Virus record (IMG/VR): IMGVR_UViG_3300025886_001957
Location: 14,463-78,462 of that record
From: a virus
DNA: 64,000 bases
Reading direction: 5' to 3' (one strand)
Below, one piece after another: positions 2,590-57,578 of this stretch (position 1 is the stretch's first letter; each line of letters begins with the position of its first letter). The notes beneath the pieces were generated by a model. That model was not told the DNA's origin, did no database searches, and saw only the letters and a program-made list of their open reading frames with translations. Both the position numbers and the translations under genes were made by a program.

Positions 2590-2970
2590 TTATGCTTCCT
2601 TATCAAAATATTGACCGGCATTATATTCGGGCTTTTCAACATACTTTTGAGAATCAAATATTGCACTACTAGCTTCCATATTACGCATAGCTTCTCTTAC
2701 ACGATTCTGCATTGATTCTGCTAATAAACGTGCTTCTTCTCGTGACTCTACATTTAATAATACAGTACTACGGTCTACTTGATTAACTACTCGTAGAGGT
2801 CTATCTGGTGGTGGCACTGCATTAGGCGGTTGTGTTTCTGAATTTGGAAATTGAGCTCCGTAATTTTGTGCAGCTCTAATCCTCAATTGTTCAGCTATTT
2901 GTTCTTGCTGTTGCATCCATTTTTGATATACTACTCCGGGGATTGCTGCTGTTGCTTGTATTTCACTCAA
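2590..2970 (-). CDS. Hypothetical protein
   Basis: ORF track; tightly coupled to neighbours. Confidence 0.55.
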   Translation of the reverse strand: MSEIQATAAIPGVVYQKWMQQQEQIAEQLRIRAAQNYGAQFPNSETQPPNAVPPPDRPLRVVNQVDRSTVLLNVESREEARLLAESMQNRVREAMRNMEASSAIFDSQKYVEKPEYNAGQYFDKEA

Positions 2971-3326
2971 TGCTCATCTCCAAATTGTACTCCATCAGGC
3001 TTATCATCTGAATACATTAAAATACTTTCTGTTTCGATCATCCTTAGTTCTTTTTCACCATTACCGTCGTCGACATTAAAACTTCTAGTCCAACGTCCGT
3101 GTTCAACTAACACCCAATCACCTGTTTGATAATTATCTGTGTTATCTGGACCTTTGGCATGTACTTGTCCCCAGCGGGGATATATTCCTCTTGTTGAACC
3201 GTCGTCGCTACGTATTATAAGTCCTTTAGCAGTTGTTTGTTCACCAAAGTGCATATTAGTAACAATAACTCTATCTCCAATTGGATTAAGTTTTCCTTTA
3301 ATTGCTTTTGTGTAATTTAAAACCAT
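2967..3326 (-). CDS. groES: Co-chaperonin GroES-like protein
   Basis: LNPIGDRVIV...GLII...GQVHAKGP...GDWVL pattern. Confidence 0.8.
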   Translation of the reverse strand: MVLNYTKAIKGKLNPIGDRVIVTNMHFGEQTTAKGLIIRSDDGSTRGIYPRWGQVHAKGPDNTDNYQTGDWVLVEHGRWTRSFNVDDGNGEKELRMIETESILMYSDDKPDGVQFGDEH

Positions 3327-30596: not shown

Positions 30597-30778
30597 TTTT
30601 TATGTTCTTTCTTTTCTTTAATACAATTATTAATTAATTGCTTTTGGTCTCTAATCAATTTTTGTTGATTCTCTAATTCTATATATTGTTTATCAAGTTC
30701 TGATAATTGTGGGAATTCAATAATTTTAGTCATATTATTCCTTTCATAATAGTAGTAGCCCTTAGGGCTACTACACAC
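30593..30778 (-). CDS. Hypothetical coiled-coil protein (start uncertain)
   Basis: ORF track. Confidence 0.45.
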   Translation of the reverse strand: MCSSPKGYYYYERNNMTKIIEFPQLSELDKQYIELENQQKLIRDQKQLINNCIKEKKEHKK

Positions 30779-46973: not shown

Positions 46974-47669
46974 CTATAGTTTAGGGAATAATAAGTCTCT
47001 ACAAAATATTTCTACATCATTCTCAGGTAATCCAAGACTTTTCATTACAGCTGGTGTATGAGGATTCATCTGTTGATTTGTACAATAATAGTTGTGCATT
47101 TTTTTATTATACTCAACATCTAAGATATCTTGATATGTTGAATACTTGGTAATTTCTTCTAAATAATACACAGTGTTAGATAAAACAATATCAATAATTT
47201 GATCTATTTCTTCTGTAGTACTAACATTACTAGCAGAAATCATCCACGGTGTAAATATATTACTTGCCCATTCGGGTAACACTCTTTCCTTAGTTGGTGT
47301 ATAATCTCTTACACTCTCTTGAAACCCTTGAATCATTGGATGATCTATGCCGCCGCTAGTTTCGCTAAAATCATGAAATGCACCTGTAATTTTATTTTTA
47401 CCGGCAATAACGTCGAAGCCATAAATGGGTCCATTGTTATCCATGGATGGAAACATACAAACATGCATCATCCATAGACCTTTAGTATCCCTAGCATCAA
47501 CTACATCAACATGTGCTCGGCGAATGTGTTGATTAACCCATGTTCTATTAATCCAATTGTTATGATTAAATTGTGCTAATGCTGGTTCATGATATTCAGC
47601 AGCATTATCGTTGAGTAGTTTAATAATTTGATTTTGACAATCAACAAGTTTATTCCATATAAGGCTCAA
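46974..47669 (-). CDS. Ferredoxin-dependent bilin reductase (PcyA/PcyX-like)
   Basis: RRAHVDVVD, MMHVCMFP, PIYGFDVIAG, GAFHDFS, LPEWA..IF, NPHT. Confidence 0.85.
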   Translation of the reverse strand: MSLIWNKLVDCQNQIIKLLNDNAAEYHEPALAQFNHNNWINRTWVNQHIRRAHVDVVDARDTKGLWMMHVCMFPSMDNNGPIYGFDVIAGKNKITGAFHDFSETSGGIDHPMIQGFQESVRDYTPTKERVLPEWASNIFTPWMISASNVSTTEEIDQIIDIVLSNTVYYLEEITKYSTYQDILDVEYNKKMHNYYCTNQQMNPHTPAVMKSLGLPENDVEIFCRDLLFPKL

Positions 47670-48207
47670 TGTCCAACTCCATTAATTCTTGAAATAATTT
47701 AGTTGCAGATTCAAATACATAGATTGCTTCAGTAGCCATATCATCTGTGGTCTTGCTTCTTATTATTTCTTTTAATGCTGCTTTATCGCCGTCAAACTGA
47801 TACATTTGTTTTGACCCTGGTACCTTACGTGCTATCATTTGCCCTCCGCTTAGGTCTCCCATATGAAGTGTATAGATGTGTGCTGTTAACAATACAGGAT
47901 CTTGCATAATTTCTTTCATATGCAAAATATATTCATGAGTGCTAGGTAGTACAACAGGTGATTCGTTGTGATTCCATAATTCGTTAAAATCTTGTTCAAT
48001 TTTTAAATGACGACTTACTCCAGGAAGATCGTCAAATATTCCATGAGAACTTGCAAGTGTTTCTAATAATTTATATTTTTTATGTTGATTCCACAAATAT
48101 GTAGCATATAACTCAGGATTAATTTTTCCACTCATCAATACTTTAACAAATTTTTGTCTTTCTGCATTTCGATGTTGATCATGAGTTAATTCTTTTAATT
48201 TACTCAT
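47650..48207 (-). CDS. Heme oxygenase (HO1/HemO type)
   Basis: LKELTHDQHRNAE proximal His; HIYTLHMGDLSGGQMI. Confidence 0.92.
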   Translation of the reverse strand: MSKLKELTHDQHRNAERQKFVKVLMSGKINPELYATYLWNQHKKYKLLETLASSHGIFDDLPGVSRHLKIEQDFNELWNHNESPVVLPSTHEYILHMKEIMQDPVLLTAHIYTLHMGDLSGGQMIARKVPGSKQMYQFDGDKAALKEIIRSKTTDDMATEAIYVFESATKLFQELMELDIEPYME

Positions 48208-48515
48208 TCTTCTTCAATCTTTATTCGTAAAGGAAATCCATTATCTCGACTTAGTGTAGTTGCTTCAACAGATTTTTGTTCAGCAATTTCGTAACTGTAT
48301 ATACCAACTACTCCTGATCCTTTTTCATGAATTTCAAGTGTTAACGAAAGTGCTGATTCTTCTGAATGTTTAAATAATTCGGTTATTAATGATATTACAA
48401 AATCCATTGGAGTTTGCTCATCGTTAAGAAATACTACCTTATAACGACTTGGCTCGTCAATATTAATTTTAATTTTATCATTTATTTTTATATCTAAGTC
48501 AACATCTGTGGTCAT
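48204..48515 (-). CDS. clpS: Clp protease adaptor ClpS
   Basis: YKVVFLNDEQTPMDFV, IHEKG.GVVG.YSYEIAE. Confidence 0.92.
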   Translation of the reverse strand: MTTDVDLDIKINDKIKINIDEPSRYKVVFLNDEQTPMDFVISLITELFKHSEESALSLTLEIHEKGSGVVGIYSYEIAEQKSVEATTLSRDNGFPLRIKIEEE

Positions 48516-48529
48516 TTTTAAATCCTTTT

Positions 48530-48554
48530 ATTAGGGGGAGTTATTCCCCCTAAT
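48530..48554. repeat. 10-bp perfect hairpin between hsp20 and clpS
   Basis: ATTAGGGGGA-GTTAT-TCCCCCTAAT; no U-tract on either strand. Confidence 0.75.
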
Positions 48555-48569
48555 GTACTTAGTTAATAT

Positions 48570-49013
48570 TTATTTAAGTGTGCTGACAGTTGAAATATTA
48601 ATTTTTTTAGGTTGATCAGCTTCAGGAACTTCTCTAACTAAATGAATATTTAACATTCCTAATTCAAGTGTAGCATTTTCAACCTCAACATTATCGGCTA
48701 GTGTAAACTCTTTTTTAAAGTTACGACCAGCAATACCTTGATGTAAATAGTTTATACTGTTGTCATTAATCGTTGTTTTACGACCTTCAATTCTTAAAAC
48801 ATTCTTTTCTTTTAGAATATCTAAATTGTCCATATCAAATCCTGCAACAGCTAACGAAATTAAGTATTCATTTTCGTTGAGTTCTATTAAATTATATGGT
48901 GGATAATTAGTAGCTGATGTAGTTGTAAAACGTTCCATCTGATCAAATAAATTATCAAATCCAACTGAGGTTCTATGAAAATTAGGGAAGTCTATTGTTT
49001 GTAATCTTGTCAT
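48570..49013 (-). CDS. Small heat-shock protein (Hsp20/IbpA family)
   Basis: NYPPYNLI, LAVAGF, LHQGIAGRNF; ATG at 49013 has an AAGGAGA SD. Confidence 0.93.
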   Translation of the reverse strand: MTRLQTIDFPNFHRTSVGFDNLFDQMERFTTTSATNYPPYNLIELNENEYLISLAVAGFDMDNLDILKEKNVLRIEGRKTTINDNSINYLHQGIAGRNFKKEFTLADNVEVENATLELGMLNIHLVREVPEADQPKKINISTVSTLK

Positions 49014-49019
49014 GTTATT

Positions 49020-49077
49020 TCTCCTTATATAAGCAAGATATAGTGGACCCAATAAGGCGTCCACTAGTATTTATTTA
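49020..49077 (-). promoter_or_regulatory. TAAATA late-type promoter and ROSE-like thermometer leader of hsp20
   Basis: 8-bp hairpin followed by TCTTGCTT-ATAT-AAGGAGA. Confidence 0.65.
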
Positions 49078-50967
49078 AGATTCTTGGGTAAATTCTGCAT
49101 CTACAATTTCAGCATCATCTTTATTAAGATCGTTTGGTTCTTCTGGTTTTTCTCGTTCTGCCTTAATTTTGAATACAACTTCCATTGCTGTTAACAGTTC
49201 TTTGGTTTTTTCTTGCATATTATCAGTGTCATCAGTTTTAGCTGATTCTAAACAAGTTGAAGTTGCTTCTTCAATTGCAGTTTTTTCATCTTCGGACAAA
49301 TCGTCTTTTACTTCGTTATAGTCTTTTTGTAGTTGAGCAACAGTTGATTCTGTTCTATTTCTTTCATCGACAATTTTTCTGCGCTGCATATCATTTTCAG
49401 AATTTTCTTCAGCATCTTTAATCATCTGTTCAATTTCGCTCTCAGATAGTCCGCCACCAGATTCGATAGTAATATTCTGTTCTTTACCTGTGCCTTGATC
49501 CTTTGCACTTACTGAAAGAATTCCGTTAGCATCAATATCAAATGTTACCTCAATTTGTGGAACTCCTCGTGGCGCTGGTGCAATACCATCTAAGTTAAAT
49601 GTACCAAGCATTTTGTTGTCACTAATAAATTCTCTTTCACCTTGACCTACTGTAATAGTTACTGTTGGTTGACCGTCATCAGCTGTACTAAATACCTGAC
49701 TTTTCTTTGCAGGAATTGTAGTGTTTTTGTCAATAAGTTTTACCATGACACCGCCTACTGTTTCAATACCAAGCGATAGTGGTGTTACATCTAATAACAG
49801 TATATCTTTATTATCGCCAGCAAGTACTGATCCTTGTAGAGCAGCACCCATAGCAACTGCTTCGTCTGGATTTACATCCTTACGAGGTGCTTTACCAAAA
49901 AACTTTTCTACCGCAACTTGGACTGCTGGCATACGAGTTTGACCGCCAACTAATATAACTTCATCAATATCTGAGATACTAAGTTCAGCATCTTTAATTG
50001 CAACTTCGCAAGGCTTAATTGTTCTAGCAACTAAGCCTTCAACTAGACCTTCAAAAGTTGAACGTGTAATTTTTGATGTAAAGTGTTTTGGACCTGTTGT
50101 ATCGGCTGTTAGATATGGTAAGTTAATATCTGTTTGTGCTCCAGAGCTTAGTTCAACTTTGGCTTTCTCGGCAGCTTCTTTAAGACGTTGTAATGCCATG
50201 TTATCAGAAGATATATCAATTCCAGATTCTTTCTTAAATTCTGCAATTATCCAATCAACTAATACTTGATCAAAATCTTCACCACCTAGAAGTGTATCGC
50301 CATTTGTTGATAATACTTCAAACTGTTGTTCACCGTCCATTTCGTCAATTTCAATTATTGAAACGTCAAATGTTCCGCCACCTAAGTCATACACTGCAAT
50401 TTTACGTGTACCAGTAACACCTTTTTCAACACCATATGCTAATGCTGCTGCTGTTGGCTCGTTGATAATACGCAATACTTCTAAACCTGCAATCTTACCT
50501 GCATCCTTAGTTGCTTGACGTTGCGAGTCATTAAAATATGCTGGAACTGTGATAACAGCTTGTGTTACTTCCTCACCAAGATAATCTTCAGCGTTTGTTT
50601 TAATTCTACGAAGAATTTCTGAAGAAACCTGTTGTGGTGCATATTGTGATCCATTTGCTTCAATCCAAGCATCGCCGTTCTTTGCTTTTACAATTTTATA
50701 AGGACTATTCTTAATATCCTTTTTAACAGTTTTGTCGCTAAACTTACGTCCAATTAAACGCTTTACTGCGTGAATAGTGTTTGAACTATTTGTAACTGCT
50801 TGTCTTTTTGCTGCTGCTCCAACTAAAATATCGTCATCAGTGTATGCAACAATACTTGGTGTAGTACGTCCTCCATCTGCATTTTCAATAATTTTGTGAG
50901 TTGTTCCGTTGACTACTGCTAAACACGAATTAGTAGTCCCTAGGTCAATGCCTATTACTTTTGCCAT
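49075..50967 (-). CDS. dnaK: Hsp70 chaperone DnaK
   Basis: [32 protein letters not shown]; ATG at 50967 has an SD. Confidence 0.98.
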
Positions 50968-50972
50968 TTTAT

Positions 50973-51025
50973 TCTCCTTTATAAGCAAGATATGTTGAAC
51001 CCATTACGGCGTTCAACATTATTTA
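50973..51025 (-). promoter_or_regulatory. TAAATA late-type promoter and ROSE-like thermometer leader of dnaK
   Basis: 9-bp hairpin followed by TCTTGCTT-ATA-AAGGAGA. Confidence 0.65.
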
Positions 51026-52111
51026 TCAGTTTGTATAAACTGAGTTAAATTGTTGAGTACAACGGATAAATGTTGTACATTTACTCAATTGTTTTAATTT
51101 TATTGCACCAGCGTATGTACAAGTAGATCTTAATCCTCCAAGAAGATCTTGTATTGTATATGCTACTTCACCTCTATAAGGAACAAGTACTTCACGACCT
51201 TCAGCTGAACGATAATCCTTGAGACCGCCAAAGTGTTTTGTATTTGCTGCTTCGCTACTCATACCGTAGAACTGTACAAACTTTTTTTCTTTGATAACAC
51301 GGGATTCATTTTCAAACTCATCTGTGATATATCTTTTTGTAATTACTTTGCCGCTGCCTTCGTTGTGTCCCGCAAGCATTCCTCCGAGCATAACGAAATC
51401 AGCACCACCTGCAAACGCTTTGGCAATATCGCCAGGACAAGTGCAACCACCATCAGCAATGATATGACCGCTAAGGCCGTGAGCAGCATCGGCACACTCG
51501 ATAACAGCTGATAGTTGTGGATAACCCACTCCTGTTTGAATACGAGTAGTGCAAACAGACCCGGGACCAATACCAACCTTAACAATATCTGCGCCAGCAA
51601 GAATCAATTCCTCTGTCATTTCTCCAGTAACTACGTTACCTGCTATAATCACTAATTTTGGAAACTGATCACGTACTTTACGCACCCTTGCCGCAAAGTG
51701 GTCACTGTATCCGTTTGCGATATCCATACATACATATTTTAAGTTATCGCCTACGTGGGCCTGTACATTGACTAACTTTAAAAAGTCAGCATCACTTGAG
51801 CCAATACTCATAGCAACATTAGCTGTACGCTCGGGTATATTGATATTAAAGTATTCTACAAGTTGTTCGGCTGAGTAAGTTTTAACTAAACATGTAAAGA
51901 TGTTACCTTCGGCAAGTTTGTTTGCCATTTCAAATGTACCAACACCATCCATGTTACTTGCCATAATCGGCACACCTTCGTATTCTGCTTTACTGTTTCT
52001 AAATTTAAACTTACGGTCTAGGCGTACTTGGCTACGACTTTGTAGTGTACTACGTTTTGGTCTTATAAGCACATCTTTATAGTCAAGGCGAATTTCTTGG
52101 TCGATACGCAT
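51026..52111 (-). CDS. guaC: GMP reductase
   Basis: [37 protein letters not shown]. Confidence 0.93.
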
Positions 52112-52112
52112 A

Positions 52113-52349
52113 TTAAAGCTCGTTTGATTTTTGTTTTAGTTTTTTTGCTCTGCGTATTGCAGCAAGCTTTGATAACCTTCTTTTGGTTCCTTTGGACTGA
52201 TAAAATTCTCTTTGTTTCATCTCTTGAAACAGTCCGTCATCGGCTAATTTCTTTTTTAGTTTTCGTAATGCTTTAGCAATGTCATTGTTATAAACATCGA
52301 CTTTAAAGCCTTTGCTAAATGTTGTGTCTGTTTTTAAATGTTTACTCAT
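52113..52349 (-). CDS. rpsU: 30S ribosomal protein bS21
   Basis: [16 protein letters not shown]...[16 protein letters not shown]. Confidence 0.85.
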
Positions 52350-52743
52350 TATTTCCTCTATCTATTAATATATTGTTGAGCCATTGTAAGTCATAGACTT
52401 TGTTATTGCTTATTAAATTATAAGGTGTAACCGAGTCGTTTGTCAAGTAAAAAGTGTCTGGTTGTGCAATAAAATACGATGAAAATTTACGAACCGCTGG
52501 ATTACAATTATCCAAGTCAATAATAGTAGATTTTATATTTTTTTGTTGACTTATTGATAATAACCAAGGTATCTCATGTTCGTCAAACCATGTTTCAAAT
52601 AGAAATATATTCAAGTCAATGGTTAAATGATCAATTGACTGTTGTAACATTTCTTTAAGGTGTTCGGTTGGACAAATAAGTAAAATACTAAGTGTGTCAT
52701 TTAATAATACATCAGGTGGTGTAATTATTGTAATATTATTCAT
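52342..52743 (-). CDS. Hypothetical protein
   Basis: ORF track. Confidence 0.6.
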   Translation of the reverse strand: MNNITIITPPDVLLNDTLSILLICPTEHLKEMLQQSIDHLTIDLNIFLFETWFDEHEIPWLLSISQQKNIKSTIIDLDNCNPAVRKFSSYFIAQPDTFYLTNDSVTPYNLISNNKVYDLQWLNNILIDRGNNE

Positions 52744-52749
52744 ACTATT

Positions 52750-54918
52750 CTAATTCCATGGAAGTTTATCTATTTTACCTTTTATATATCTCATTTTCCA
52801 TATCTTGATACTTTGATCTGGATTGTTCTGTTTCCATTCATGTTTTTTGTTGTTATACTCATTGTCTTTTTCTAATCTAGATAGATGTTCTTGGCGTTGC
52901 TTTTCATCTTCATTATTAGGTATAAATTCTTCGTCGGCTTTAGGAATTACTGGTACCATTCCTTGGGAAGTGTCTCTTCCATTATCATTGGTTCTAAGTT
53001 GTTTATTATTAATTGTAGTTGTTTCACTGTCATTGCTGGCTTGCTCTGTGGCAACTTCTTTACTTCCTTTGTCGGATTGTTCGTTGTTGTCTGTGTTGAC
53101 ATCATCAGGTCTATTATACTGGTCATTTCTGGTATCTCCGTCATCGTATCCAGGATTATTAACAATAGCTTGCGCCCGTTGTCTTTCATAATCTGTTCGA
53201 CTATTAGTCTGATCGTGTTTTTCTTTTGCACGATACATAAATGTATATTGGCTAGCAATTAGCAGTAACACAGCTAATGGATCAAAAACTAGAATTATTA
53301 TTAAGATTACCCATCTTACTGCCTCTTCTAATATAGTTTGATCTGCTTTTTCGCCATATACAAATTCTGCGAGATATTTAACAGGACCAACTTCTGCTTC
53401 TAGCTTACGATAATCAGCTTGTAAAGCATATTTTTGTTCTGTTAGTTCGTCAATAGTATTATTAGTTGTACGTATTTTATTTTGTTGTTCAGTAACAAAT
53501 TGTTCAACATCTTCATCTTTTCCTACAGTTAAATTATCTCTTAATCGCTGTATCAAAGAATTGCTTGCTGCAATTTGTGTATCTGCACTAGTGCGTAAAT
53601 TGGCTATTGTTTGTCTAGCAGAAATAATTTTAGGATTTTCTGCTTTACGTAAATTTGCAATAGTTTCTTGTATTGTTTTTTGTTGACTACGGATATTTGG
53701 AATACTATTATCTATTATTGTTTGAATATTAGTAAGTATTTGCTTACGAGAGTTAGTAGCTTCAGTTGTAGCCTTGTTACGTATTCTGTCAATATCTACT
53801 ACTATCTGCTGTTTACGTTTTGTAATGTTATCAGTTTGTTCTCCACGTAAATTATTTACTAGTGTAGTAAGTCTTTGCCTTTCAGTGTCAAACGCAGTTT
53901 GAGCTTGTTGACGTAATTCAGTTGCTTGTGTTTGTAATTCATTAATGCGAGTTTGTTGTGCTTCAACCCATGCATCAAGAGCACGTTGAGTATTTGAACC
54001 AAATTTACCGTCACTGTTTACACCAATAATAGCTTGACCAATTTTAATTTGTTCTTTTTCATTACTTTGTAATTTATTTGTAATTACTGTTAGGTTTTCT
54101 TTTAAATCTGCTACTTGCTGTAACATTTCATCAGCTAGTGTTGTATCGATACTTAGTAAACTTATTCTTTCTTCATATTCATTTGCTTGAGTATTAATAC
54201 GTCCTAGATTTTCTTCTAGTTGTTCACTTTCGTCAATGTACGGCTGTACTTGTTCTTCAACACTTGACGCACTTACTGAATCAAGTTGAGTTCTATAATC
54301 TTTTACTACGCTTTCTAATCTAGTAATTTCGTCGTTAAAACTTGTTAATTCTTTTTCATGCGAAGTTATTTGTTTTTCAACTTTGAGTAACTCTGCTGTA
54401 ATAATGCTGTTTTGTTCAGCTATTGCAGGATCTATTCTATCATATGCTGTATCAATACGTATTTGTTCTTTGTCAATTTGTTCTTGTATAGCATCATTGC
54501 CGCTGCCTACACTTGCTTCAGCTTCGTTTATGCGTGTTTCAGATCTTGAAATAATCTGTTCTTGTCGTATTATTTCTTCGTCAATCCGGTCTATTTGAGC
54601 AATGCCTTCATCGGCAGCACTTGTTTGTTCTATATGTGCCTTTGAAAGAAATCCAAAAATACCCATACTGGTTATAAACATAAGAATAAAAACAGCTAGT
54701 GTAAGGTAAGTTTTTAACCACCAAGTTGCTTGTTTCCAGTATCGATGTAACCATACCGCGGTAATTAATTTACCTACTTCAAGTACACCTCCCATAATCA
54801 TGATAGGAATTGCAGCCGCAGCAAAAATAGCCATAAGTCCAGCTACTGAATAATAAATTGCTACTGCACTTATTGAAAGAGCAGTAACCAGTGTAAGTAT
54901 TCCTAAAAATATATTCAT
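52750..54918 (-). CDS. Multi-TM, long coiled-coil envelope protein with a putative peptidoglycan-binding motif
   Basis: Three N-terminal TMs, heptad-rich body, IGVNSDGKFGSNTQRAL, C-terminal TM. Confidence 0.65.
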   Translation of the reverse strand: MNIFLGILTLVTALSISAVAIYYSVAGLMAIFAAAAIPIMIMGGVLEVGKLITAVWLHRYWKQATWWLKTYLTLAVFILMFITSMGIFGFLSKAHIEQTSAADEGIAQIDRIDEEIIRQEQIISRSETRINEAEASVGSGNDAIQEQIDKEQIRIDTAYDRIDPAIAEQNSIITAELLKVEKQITSHEKELTSFNDEITRLESVVKDYRTQLDSVSASSVEEQVQPYIDESEQLEENLGRINTQANEYEERISLLSIDTTLADEMLQQVADLKENLTVITNKLQSNEKEQIKIGQAIIGVNSDGKFGSNTQRALDAWVEAQQTRINELQTQATELRQQAQTAFDTERQRLTTLVNNLRGEQTDNITKRKQQIVVDIDRIRNKATTEATNSRKQILTNIQTIIDNSIPNIRSQQKTIQETIANLRKAENPKIISARQTIANLRTSADTQIAASNSLIQRLRDNLTVGKDEDVEQFVTEQQNKIRTTNNTIDELTEQKYALQADYRKLEAEVGPVKYLAEFVYGEKADQTILEEAVRWVILIIILVFDPLAVLLLIASQYTFMYRAKEKHDQTNSRTDYERQRAQAIVNNPGYDDGDTRNDQYNRPDDVNTDNNEQSDKGSKEVATEQASNDSETTTINNKQLRTNDNGRDTSQGMVPVIPKADEEFIPNNEDEKQRQEHLSRLEKDNEYNNKKHEWKQNNPDQSIKIWKMRYIKGKIDKLPWN

Positions 54919-57009: not shown

Positions 57010-57358
57010 CTCGTAGTCGGCACTTCTGTTGCCAGGCAGTACCCGCCCCGGAAAGCCTATTTAGGCTGCCATTGCCATGTCTGGCGCATAATTGTCATTT
57101 GCAATTATAGTTGTTGACCAATAACGCAGTCATCCGGTAAACTCCACTCTATCTTCACACTGGTCGATCCTATTTCGGCCCCATCAAAGATACACTATCC
57201 TGCCTCCTCTTAACATTTAGTTAAGTATCAACAATCAGGTTCAAAACATCTCGCAATGTCAGTTTTATCAACTACTAAGTAGCATAGTATATCTATGGTG
57301 GAGCCGTCCGGTACCGCCCCGGAGTCCCATATGTGTCCATTTTGCTTCAACATTTACA
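57010..57358 (-). ncRNA. ssrA: Circularly permuted (two-piece) tmRNA
   Basis: Acceptor piece ending GGCTCCACCA at 57296; coding piece starting GGGGCCGAAATAGGATCGAC at 57182; tag ANDNYAPDMAMAA* at 57102..57061; outer ends approximate. Confidence 0.92.
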
Positions 57359-57362
57359 AGTA

Positions 57363-57393
57363 TATTTATATATTAATTTATGGGTATTGTCAA
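57363..57393 (-). promoter_or_regulatory. tmRNA promoter: TTGACA-N17-TATAAA overlapping a late TATAAATA
   Basis: Both motifs read directly from the sequence. Confidence 0.75.
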
Positions 57394-57578
57394 GTCTCAA
57401 TGGCATCTTTTAATGTACATTTATATTCAACAGCATCCCATCTACCATCTGGTGGTATTAATTGGTATATTGGGAGCATGTCATAACAATCTTGTTTAGA
57501 ATCAAACCACTGTACATCTTGTGTAATACAGTCCGATTGTAAACAAACTGTTAGCAATATGTGCCACATTATTTCCAT
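57390..57578 (-). CDS. Small secreted protein with four Cys
   Basis: ORF track. Confidence 0.55.
   Translation of the reverse strand: MEIMWHILLTVCLQSDCITQDVQWFDSKQDCYDMLPIYQLIPPDGRWDAVEYKCTLKDAIET

Follow-up and report, generated by a model that had tools for sequence, protein, structure and literature searches.

ROSE-like 5' leaders of hsp20 and dnaK in a marine jumbo phage and their predicted role as RNA thermometers

Two similar leaders at the hsp20-dnaK locus

The window, i.e., the whole 64-kb stretch of DNA analysed here from a 96-kb viral record, stems from a marine jumbo phage, a kind of phage in which dnaK is frequent. All genes at the hsp20/dnaK locus are encoded on the minus strand, and the leaders of hsp20 (about 49011-49074) and dnaK (about 50965-51026) were confirmed there. 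In both, a promoter-like NATAAATA box is followed by hairpin I, the segment UCUUGCUU, 3-4 nt, the Shine-Dalgarno (SD) sequence AAGGAGA and the AUG (Table 1). The coordinates of box, hairpin I, anti-SD, SD and start codon bear out the common layout that the initial annotation had ascribed to the two leaders. It had also given the distance between AAGGAGA and ATG as 6 or 7 nt; the measured values are 6 nt for hsp20 and 5 nt for dnaK, unless the SD sequence is counted as AAGGAG. The exact 12-mer TATCTTGCTTAT occurs only twice in the 96-kb record, namely in these two leaders.

Table 1. Genes and leader elements of the hsp20-dnaK locus (positions in the window).
Feature	Position	Strand	Description
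hsp20	48570-49013	-	Pfam HSP20 (4e-14); 147 aa, IbpA-type small heat-shock protein
hsp20 start and first codons AUGACAAGAU	49004-49013	-	complementary to AUCUUGCUUAU
hsp20 ATG	49011-49013	-	
hsp20 hairpin II	49020-49038	-	UCUU(G)CUU with SD AAGGAGA, loop ATAT (AUAU)
hsp20 anti-SD TCTTGCTT	49031-49038	-	opposite SD AAGGAGA (49020-49026)
hsp20 hairpin I	49041-49066	-	8-bp stem TAGTGGAC/GTCCACTA, bulged G, CC/GG, 5-nt loop TTATT
ATAAATA box, hsp20 leader	49068-49074	-	T4-late-type, promoter-like; overlaps dnaK stop codon region
dnaK (Hsp70)	49075-50967	-	Pfam HSP70 (6e-252); 630 aa
dnaK ATG	50965-50967	-	
dnaK hairpin II	50973-50990	-	UCUU(G)CUU with SD AAGGAGA, loop ATA (AUA)
dnaK anti-SD	50983-50990	-	SD at 50973-50979
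dnaK hairpin I	50992-51019	-	9-bp stem ATGTTGAAC/GTTCAACAT, bulged G, CC/GG, 5-nt loop GTAAT
ATAAATA box, dnaK leader	51020-51026	-	

A new covariance model and a genome scan for additional copies had been suggested at the outset. The model R1, for which 17 leaders from other phages were used and the window sequences left out, assigns 54.5 and 50.6 bits to the two leaders of the window (E-values of about 1e-12 and 1e-11), and an R1 search of the 96-kb record recovered both of them and no third copy. The next R1 match (30731-30777, 17.7 bits) turned out to be a simple hairpin preceding a small ORF and, as it lacks an anti-SD, was rejected. A looser scan of the same record for UYRCU near an SD sequence returned the two leaders and two doubtful cases outside the window. 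A groES-like gene (2967-3326), considered as a further carrier, is coupled translationally to its upstream gene and possesses no such leader. The nearby clpS leader (48515-48575) displays a strong 5' hairpin as well.

The sequence ATAAATA is depleted in the window (24 copies observed versus 46 expected); the coding strand carries 19 of these copies, 17 of them intergenic, a distribution that makes the earlier suggestion of a late promoter plausible. Transcription would begin a few bases past the late-type NATAAATA box or would read through from the upstream gene; a start 6 nt past the box, the distance known from T4, would leave the primary transcript without the outer pairs of hairpin I. Other genes preceded by an ATAAATA box have leaders of only 16-31 nt. 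A scan for consensus promoters and terminators called neither a sigma-70-type promoter nor a terminator at the leaders. Metatranscriptome contigs of a 95%-identical relative, from which 5' ends cannot be read and in which DNA carry-over is possible, span the dnaK-leader-hsp20 as well as the upstream gene-leader-dnaK junction.

A leader family linked to heat-shock genes

At least 56 distinct members of this leader family are present in IMG/VR. A motif scan of IMG/VR that was blind to gene content retrieved 60 loci, nearly all with the full architecture, and the link to heat-shock genes is exclusive in phages, where the downstream gene is always hsp20 or dnaK (of 42 small heat-shock genes, 41 are HSP20 according to Pfam). 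Relatives of the phage dnaK that were picked by protein alone (65-73% identity) carry the leader in 12 of 12 cases, so that the extension of this leader to dnaK, as put forward in the initial annotation, is real. Eight distinct dnaK-hsp20 tandems possess the leader on both genes. Among cultured phages, again selected by protein, the leader precedes hsp20 in seven of eight, i.e., in Melnitz, Syn19, Phosso, P-SSM4, Mosig, S-PM2 and, weakly, HTVC115P. When the dnaK-hsp20 stretch was used as query against GenBank phage DNA, only distant dnaK matches of 60-80% identity were obtained, none of them spanning most of the query, and family member L060 had no match in the same kind of search. Marine cyanomyoviruses are known to have hsp20 among their core genes (PMC3037559). 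The leader itself appears to be common in marine phages but undescribed there, and our search of the literature on thermometers in cyanophages or on phage hsp20 found nothing relevant.

The compensatory change that had been noticed between the two hairpins of the window turns out to be massive across the family. Hairpin I is 98% paired in 56 distinct sequences with both-sided changes in six of eight pairs, a degree of covariation that was reached by none of 500 shuffles and that collapses once the pairing partners are slid. Its apex, consisting of a Y-G pair, a bulged G, CC/GG and a loop of 4-7 nt, is conserved. Alignments of the leaders with MAFFT (A1 and A2) misaligned hairpin I structurally and were replaced. 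Hairpin II is 98.6% paired in a wider sequence set, in which U.G is replaced by C-G in seven sequences and double changes are few. Because hairpin II is nearly invariant, an invariance that arises partly from the way the first sequence set was collected, covariation tells little about it. Variants of the anti-SD within the family comprise UCGCU, where the U.G pair becomes C-G, and UUACU, where the bulged base is an A.

This pattern of change bears on the idea that the palindrome acts in DNA, where it might serve a CIRCE/HrcA-like repressor as operator or belong to a sigma-32-type promoter. Inverted repeats are frequent among heat-shock operators, and here one adjoins a promoter-like box. However, the sequence of the stem varies freely while its pairing is kept, including G.U pairs that are meaningful only in RNA, and the conserved CTTG lies only 12-15 nt 5' of the ATG, so that a promoter at this place would give a transcript devoid of an SD sequence. 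Together with the negative consensus scan for sigma-70-type promoters and terminators, these points make a role in DNA very improbable.

Related leaders are also found in cells. R1 matches regions before rpoH, hsp20 and clpB in small AT-rich genomes of α-proteobacteria, and an rpoH leader from this group obtains 33.9 bits with the Rfam model ROSE_3 (threshold 43). When 596 Gb of prokaryote genomes were scanned for the exact motif, 74 matches were obtained, roughly what chance would give, and only three of them are true members according to the model.

Kinship with ROSE elements

Elements of the ROSE-like class reside in the 5' UTR of genes for small heat-shock proteins (IbpA/Hsp20) and consist of two to four hairpins, the SD sequence being part of the gene-proximal one, where a U(U/C)GCU anti-SD pairs imperfectly with the SD sequence and leaves a bulged G; translation is repressed in the cold and released by heat when the SD hairpin melts (PMC3669281). 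The phage leaders have two hairpins, and hairpin II, the one nearest to the gene, holds AAGGAGA. In both copies, the SD sequence faces U(U/C)GCU with its bulged G. The hsp20 copy precedes a small heat-shock gene as in the class, and the dnaK copy departs from the class in this point. Structure, family-wide comparison and links to Rfam models thus support the ROSE-like reading proposed initially, and by these resemblances we assign the leaders to the ROSE-like class as a new phage-borne member, for which a response to temperature is predicted.

The Rfam search suggested earlier gave no direct match for the window copies. At gathering thresholds, only tmRNA and tRNAs were detected in the whole window, and a scan at E<=10 of positions 48900-51200 and of the hsp20 leader alone yielded no match to ROSE (RF00435), ROSE_2 (RF01832) or ROSE_3 (RF02523) and a single chance-level match of 16 bits to freshwater-2. 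Other members of the family come closer, with ROSE_3 scores of 41.3, 38.9, 37.6 and 37.0 bits, all below the threshold of 43. The corresponding E-values range from 4e-5 to 1e-3 for family members and the cellular rpoH leader, several phage members lying between 4e-5 and 5e-4. Reciprocally, R1 matches two genuine Pseudomonas ROSE_3 elements, the matches in both directions being below threshold. In contrast, ROSE_2 reached only chance level on two other phage dnaK leaders (23-25 bits with a threshold of 65, E-values of 0.6-1.8).

Kinship with ROSE_3, the element of Pseudomonas ibpA, is also shown by structure. Both kinds of leader form two hairpins, joined by a single-stranded linker, in the 5' UTR of a gene for an IbpA-type protein. 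They have in common the apex of hairpin I, in which a U or C paired to G and a bulged G lie below CC..GG, so that the bulge is situated two pairs below the loop (U-G-CC..GG-G), and phage member L020 even displays the exact Pseudomonas apex UGCC-GAAGUC-GGG. Common to both is also CU(U/C)GCU opposite AGGAG, in the same register and with a bulged G, and in both the AUG is unpaired in the fold that masks the SD sequence. In contrast to ROSE_3, the phage leaders are viral and AT-rich, occur on dnaK as well and are predicted to rely for transcription on a late-type phage promoter box, not on sigma-32. Their hairpin II comprises only seven pairs with a loop of 3-4 nt and no G-C clamps, and its predicted stability is about half.

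Other known thermometers are more remote. Classical ROSE and the ROSE_2 element of E. coli ibpA, which belong to α- and γ-proteobacteria, share U(U/C)GCU, the bulged G, the gene-proximal hairpin and the association with small heat-shock genes; classical ROSE differs by three to four hairpins within 70-120 nt, a higher GC content and an AUG that is often paired too. The leaders of cyanobacterial small heat-shock genes, i.e., hsp17, avashort and avalong, are likewise very short; the anti-SD of avalong is ROSE-like and has a bulged base, and in hsp17 both SD and AUG are masked (PMC4152365, PMC4477652). These cyanobacterial thermometers have other sequences and no conserved apex in a hairpin I, and they were not detected as relatives in our searches. 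The only phage RNA thermometer that we know to have been described is that of lambda cIII (Lambda_thermo in Rfam), which switches between two alternative folds, acts in the opposite sense and controls no chaperone gene. It has no sequence or structure in common with the leaders described here.

Predicted masking of the translation start and possible feedback by Hsp20

In the mechanism that we propose, hairpin I would be a stable 5' stem-loop with a conserved apex, whereas in hairpin II UCUUGCUU would pair imperfectly with AAGGAGA through seven pairs, including one G.U, and a bulged G and would thereby hide the ribosome binding site. As hairpin II is short and AU-rich, it should be shut only when cold and open up within the span of sea-water temperatures, and Hsp20 and DnaK would then be translated more strongly together. 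Nearest-neighbour folding predicts about -5 kcal/mol for hairpin II at 5 °C and about 0 at 37 °C; for hsp20, -3.8 kcal/mol at 15 °C and -0.7 at 37 °C are predicted, and for dnaK, where hairpin II is the minimum-energy structure only at or below 10 °C, -3.1 kcal/mol at 15 °C. The predicted median of the family is -4.1 kcal/mol at 15 °C, compared with -8.5 at 30 °C for the validated Pseudomonas hairpin, and the phage hairpins do without the flanking G-C pairs that were found to be necessary in the Pseudomonas thermometer (Krajewski et al. 2013; PMC3669281). The initiation region is not more structured than that of other genes in the same phage loci, the computed cost of opening the stretch from SD to AUG being lower. 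Taken together, it seems probable to us that the two leaders are members of a large subfamily carried by phages, whose short ROSE-like 5' UTRs with two hairpins are of the ROSE_3 kind and act by the mechanism proposed.

Since the computed masking is not unusual, one might regard the leader as a general feature of mRNAs, i.e., a 5' hairpin that stabilises the message, or a site of processing, adjoining a strong ribosome binding site and with no part in sensing stress. Hairpin I is located at or near the predicted 5' end, and the strong 5' hairpin of the neighbouring clpS leader would fit such a role too. Yet in phages the element is confined to the leaders of hsp20 and dnaK and in bacteria to those of rpoH, hsp20 and clpB, the 96-kb record contains two copies and no third, the anti-SD with its bulged G is kept across very different hosts, and genes elsewhere with the same box make do with their much shorter leaders of 16-31 nt. 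We therefore regard this explanation as improbable.

For hsp20, the anti-SD segment may pair with AUGACAAGAU instead and so hide the start codon, and in the minimum-energy fold of the window hsp20 leader the SD sequence is indeed open and the AUG masked. The working structure of hsp20 could accordingly be the longer helix of AUCUUGCUUAU with AUGACAAGAU, in which the start codon is hidden and the SD sequence lies in the loop. This helix is the predicted minimum-energy fold throughout 0-42 °C, exceeding the stability of hairpin II by about 3.8 kcal/mol at 15 °C. In hsp20 genes whose products start with MTR, the codons ACA AGA are used in 17 of 17, while elsewhere in these genes ACA accounts for 55% of Thr and AGA for 40% of Arg codons, and CAAGA is present in other registers in genes starting with MNKI and MTTR. 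On the other hand, the 17 MTR-type sequences are relatives of one another, and early codons are commonly rich in A in any case. The complementary codons are absent from more than half of the hsp20 leaders (MNYT, MVNT and MTMN starts), yet UCUUGCUU is kept in them, and dnaK leaders show at most a short pairing of 5 bp with the first codons. What is constant across the family is the pair of anti-SD and SD, not the start-codon helix, and we consider the latter rather doubtful as the working structure.

A further possibility concerns the product of the gene itself. In E. coli, IbpA represses translation of ibpA, ibpB and rpoH by binding to their thermometer-bearing 5' UTRs, a repression that depends on the stem-loops, on Arg93 and on the IXI motif (PMC10474464, PMC10410725). 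The Hsp20 encoded in the window is 40% identical to E. coli IbpA and, in an alignment, keeps an Arg at the position of R93 and an INI motif at its end. The phage Hsp20 proteins aligned are 30-47% identical to IbpA and have an IXI-type tail, and eight of eight possess Arg in the R93 column, where IbpB has Gln. Because the phage Hsp20 is of the IbpA type, feedback by the small heat-shock protein is a live alternative. The leader would then be mainly a binding site for Hsp20, which represses hsp20 and dnaK until it is titrated by unfolded or aggregating proteins, and it may sense the folding load during infection instead of temperature, or possibly both as in E. coli. As in the self-repression of E. 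coli IbpA (Miwa and Taguchi; PMC10474464, PMC10410725), ROSE-type leaders are present on several heat-shock genes, and both systems keep the critical Arg and the IXI motif. The E. coli rpoH leader, however, is not ROSE-like, whereas the phage hsp20 and dnaK leaders are near copies of each other. The set of cellular genes with the leader (rpoH, hsp20 and clpB) parallels the targets of IbpA, the weak hairpin II would benefit from a protein clamp, and the conservation of the apex sequence of hairpin I from Pseudomonas to phages goes beyond the need of a purely structural role, although conserved apices arise for folding reasons too. Binding of Hsp20 is compatible with a thermometer; as the main function of the leader, it is an option that we take seriously while judging it unlikely.

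More speculatively, and with rather low confidence, the leader might be the operator of a phage proteostasis circuit independent of the host sigma-32. Hsp20 would hold down translation of hsp20 and dnaK via hairpin I and the anti-SD, late unfolded virion proteins or warming would titrate Hsp20 so that both phage chaperones are turned on jointly, and the cellular rpoH, hsp20 and clpB leaders would represent the same ancient device of small heat-shock protein and RNA. If true, this device would span Pseudomonas, Rickettsiales-like bacteria and phages of cyanobacteria, SAR11, OM43 and rhizobia.

Returning to the predicted ROSE-like thermometer, we know of no virus with a second class of RNA thermometer besides lambda cIII, so that the phage leader would be only the second, and to our knowledge no earlier thermometer has been described for a chaperone gene of a phage and none of ROSE type directly on dnaK. 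R1 could found a new Rfam family or broaden ROSE_3. That Pseudomonas and phages have the apex of hairpin I in common suggests that the 5' hairpin has a function for which the ROSE field lacks an explanation so far, and hairpin II, being very weak and AU-rich, would exemplify a natural thermometer adjusted to cold water. The leaders would offer a direct, testable link between sea temperature or folding load and phage protein production in abundant viruses of the ocean.

Two leaders and their family in phages

On the minus strand, the leaders of hsp20 and dnaK are built alike: an ATAAATA box is followed by a hairpin (hairpin I), the 12-mer TATCTTGCTTAT, three to four bases, the Shine-Dalgarno (SD) sequence AAGGAGA and ATG, which bears out the order of elements claimed in the initial annotation. 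Its further claim, that hairpins of unlike sequence keep full pairing and a common loop pattern, is seen in both leaders; the hairpin I stems, TAGTGGAC/GTCCACTA and ATGTTGAAC/GTTCAACAT, differ in sequence with complete pairing, and their common apex consists of C, a bulged G, CC, five bases, GG, and G. The observation as a whole is confirmed. The 12-mer, which carries the anti-SD, occurs only twice in the whole 96-kb record.

A scan of IMG/VR for the anti-SD-plus-SD motif, in which downstream genes were disregarded, gave 60 loci, nearly all with the identical full architecture. Seventeen leaders from these loci, the window's own being left out, trained the new covariance model that the initial annotation had called for (R1), and R1 recovers the window's two leaders at 54.5 and 50.6 bits. 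The genome scan for further copies, also proposed there and run with R1, found only these two in the 96-kb record; the next-best match (17.7 bits), a plain hairpin without anti-SD, was rejected as a copy. The record's groES-like gene is not preceded by the element. Outside the window, a hairpin, AUCGCU, 8 nt, and UAGGAGA precede a gene of unknown function encoding 127 amino acids, an arrangement that may be a chance look-alike.

Across all fetched loci R1 detects 83 copies (56 distinct), and the gene downstream of every copy encodes Hsp20 or DnaK; Hsp20 was confirmed by Pfam in 41 of 42 cases, the sole exception being a 72-aa fragment. Two samples were independent of the motif. Twelve phage dnaK relatives, at 65-73% identity, were identified by protein, and all of them carry the leader; it is also present in seven of eight cultured phages chosen by Hsp20 similarity, i.e., Melnitz (47.5 bits with R1), Syn19 (38), Phosso (33.7), P-SSM4 (33.2), Mosig (31.2), S-PM2 (23.3), and, weakly matched, HTVC115P; S-TIM5 is without it. 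Eight distinct dnaK-hsp20 tandems carry the leader on both genes. Because these protein-anchored samples agree with the motif scan, hsp20 and dnaK of phages usually have this leader. In cyanomyoviruses, hsp20 belongs to the core genes (PMC3037559). In some family members an extra small hairpin (e.g., GGGCA..TGCCC) between hairpin I and the anti-SD results in a three-hairpin leader.

Pairing, kinship with ROSE elements and cellular counterparts

Among the 56 distinct sequences, 98% of the hairpin I cells are paired and six of eight pairs have changed on both sides; the covariation values were reached by none of 500 shuffles, and the signal collapses once the partners are slid by 1-3 columns. 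Hairpin I is proven by covariation. Its apex is kept in sequence across the family (a pyrimidine-G pair, one bulged G, CC/GG, and a loop of 4-7 bases). Hairpin II, UCUU-G-CUU with AAGGAGA, shows little covariation because its sequence is nearly invariant, an invariance owed in the first set in part to motif-based collection. Its usual change, U.G to C-G, corresponds exactly to the U/C choice in U(U/C)GCU, and the protein-anchored samples have the same motif with the variants CUCGCUU, CUUACUU, and UUUGCUU. In a wider set including cellular and cultured-phage members, 98.6% of its cells are paired, with a few double changes.

Three features define ROSE-like thermometers: they lie upstream of sHsp genes, they consist of two to four hairpins, and their last hairpin has U(U/C)GCU facing the SD; a short form with two hairpins is found in Pseudomonas ibpA (PMC3669281). 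The two-hairpin consensus of Rfam ROSE_3 has the same bulged-G apex in hairpin I as the phage family and, in the same register, CUYGCU against AGGAG in hairpin II; the apex of two genuine Pseudomonas elements, UGCC-GAAGUC-GGG, is identical letter for letter to that of phage locus L020. With ROSE_3, whose threshold is 43 bits, four hsp20 leaders of phages reach 37-41 bits (E 4e-5 to 5e-4) and one alphaproteobacterial leader 33.9 bits; conversely, R1 gives the two Pseudomonas elements 18-19 bits, with E near 1e-3. The Rfam ROSE search proposed at the outset gave no score for the window's own two leaders with any ROSE model. The ROSE-like reading is thus supported by structure and kinship. The window's leaders are classed as divergent, AT-rich ROSE-like elements, whose link to ROSE_3 runs through intermediate family members, not through scores above the Rfam threshold. 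The match of the hsp20 leader to Rfam freshwater-2 is at chance level; since the freshwater-2 consensus has a AAGGAGAAAA..AUG ribosome site as its 3' half, this Rfam family may be a 5' leader from phages.

In prokaryote genomes the exact motif has 74 matches in 596 Gb, about the chance expectation, and three of them are real elements according to R1. Six of 151 sampled alphaproteobacterial genomes contain an R1 match, and the genomes with cellular matches are all small (1.2-2.0 Mb) and AT-rich, some being labelled Rickettsiales. Because these matches precede rpoH, hsp20, and clpB, the module accompanies heat-shock genes in cells as well, and not only those for sHsps. To our knowledge, no ROSE-type leader directly on rpoH or clpB has been reported.

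Genomic setting and transcript start

The phage, present in marine metagenomes of at least eight studies, is probably a jumbo phage, since the 96-kb record is rated ~26% complete by CheckV. Its permuted, alphaproteobacterial-type tmRNA gene points to a host among the alphaproteobacteria, for example SAR11.

Features of the window, and related loci elsewhere
Feature	Location	Strand	Basis or remark
Block of heme oxygenase, clpS, hsp20, dnaK, IMPDH/GMP-reductase-like gene, ribosomal protein bS21	47650-54918	-	Pfam
clpS leader	48515-48575	-	
hsp20	48570-49013	-	Pfam
AUG ACA AGA of hsp20	49004-49013	-	complementary to AUCUUG of leader
hsp20 leader compared with freshwater-2	49011-49062	-	16.4 bits (threshold 49.9)
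dnaK	49075-50967	-	Pfam
Permuted tmRNA gene	57015-57397	-	Rfam alpha_tmRNA 131.8 bits, tmRNA_permuted 119.3 bits
ATAAATA box at 5' edge of tmRNA gene	57363-57369		
Look-alike arrangement in the 96-kb record	G000:C1:88584-88610	-	outside window
Three-hairpin members	L040, L067:2621-2697, L068:1429-1503, L070:1429-1503, L071:1411-1488, L078:3451-3526		
Cellular two-hairpin leaders before rpoH (three)	L155, L157, L163		R1
Cellular two-hairpin leaders before hsp20 (four)	L156, L158, L160, L162		R1
Cellular two-hairpin leader before clpB (one)	L161		R1

The late promoter proposed in the initial annotation agrees with the distribution of ATAAATA, which is rarer in the window than expected (24 copies vs 46) and lies on the coding strand in 19 of 24 cases, 17 of these 19 being intergenic; this fits a T4-late-type promoter, a role that is predicted. 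The distance to the start codon is mostly 16-31 nt, the leaders of hsp20, dnaK, and clpS being longer (51-54 nt). That of clpS, 51 nt after its box, contains a hairpin that is strong and GC-rich (ATTAGGGGG/CCCCCTAAT) immediately 5' of the SD and is without ROSE-type anti-SD. In T4, transcription starts six bases after the late-promoter box, and with a T4-like start the inner three or four pairs of hairpin I would stand at the 5' end of the primary transcript. Because the outer pairs, which would precede such a start, still covary, either the true start is farther upstream or read-through transcripts play a part. Contigs from RNA libraries, belonging to a relative with 95% identity, bridge both gene junctions, with ends not visible in the contigs and DNA carry-over possible.

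A proposed translational gate

The leader is best read as a translational gate, in which hairpin II would conceal the SD in the cold and open upon warming, so that phage Hsp20 and DnaK levels would rise together. This thermosensing function is inferred, and the thermodynamic predictions are only partly encouraging. Hairpin II has a predicted energy near -5 kcal/mol at 5 °C, between -3 and -4 at 15 °C, and near 0 at 37 °C, weaker than that of the validated Pseudomonas hairpin (-8.5 at 30 °C); by these values it would either be tuned to sea-water temperatures or be too weak against the ribosome without help. The computed cost of opening the region from SD to AUG does not exceed that of the other genes in these phage loci. 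In the predicted fold of the window's hsp20, the anti-SD segment pairs better with AUGACAAGAU, masking the start codon, and MTR-type hsp20 genes may have such a second, AUG-masking helix. AUG ACA AGA is complementary to the leader's AUCUUG in the window, at loci L007, L009, L010, L014, and at others, and CAAGA recurs in other registers in hsp20 genes starting MNKI and MTTR. That all 17 MTR-type genes use exactly ACA AGA after AUG hints at selection on the second helix in this clade.

Alternatively, phage Hsp20 might bind the leaders and repress translation until titrated, for which homology to E. coli IbpA offers good support. In E. coli, translation of ibpA, ibpB, and rpoH is repressed by IbpA bound to their thermometer-bearing leaders and resumes when aggregates titrate the protein; Arg93 and the IXI motif are needed for this repression (PMC10474464, PMC10410725). 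Phage Hsp20 proteins are of the IbpA type, with the Arg93 equivalent and the IXI motif retained, and an apex conserved in sequence, like that of hairpin I, is what a protein would be expected to recognise. The thermometer and Hsp20 feedback could act together.

In the part of the journal literature covered, no paper was found that connects phage hsp20 or dnaK with ROSE elements or RNA thermometers. As a phage-borne element it is a new member of the known ROSE-like class, with a hairpin II that is unusually AU-rich and, by prediction, unusually weak; it extends the targets of the class to dnaK in phages, and to rpoH and clpB in alphaproteobacteria with reduced genomes.
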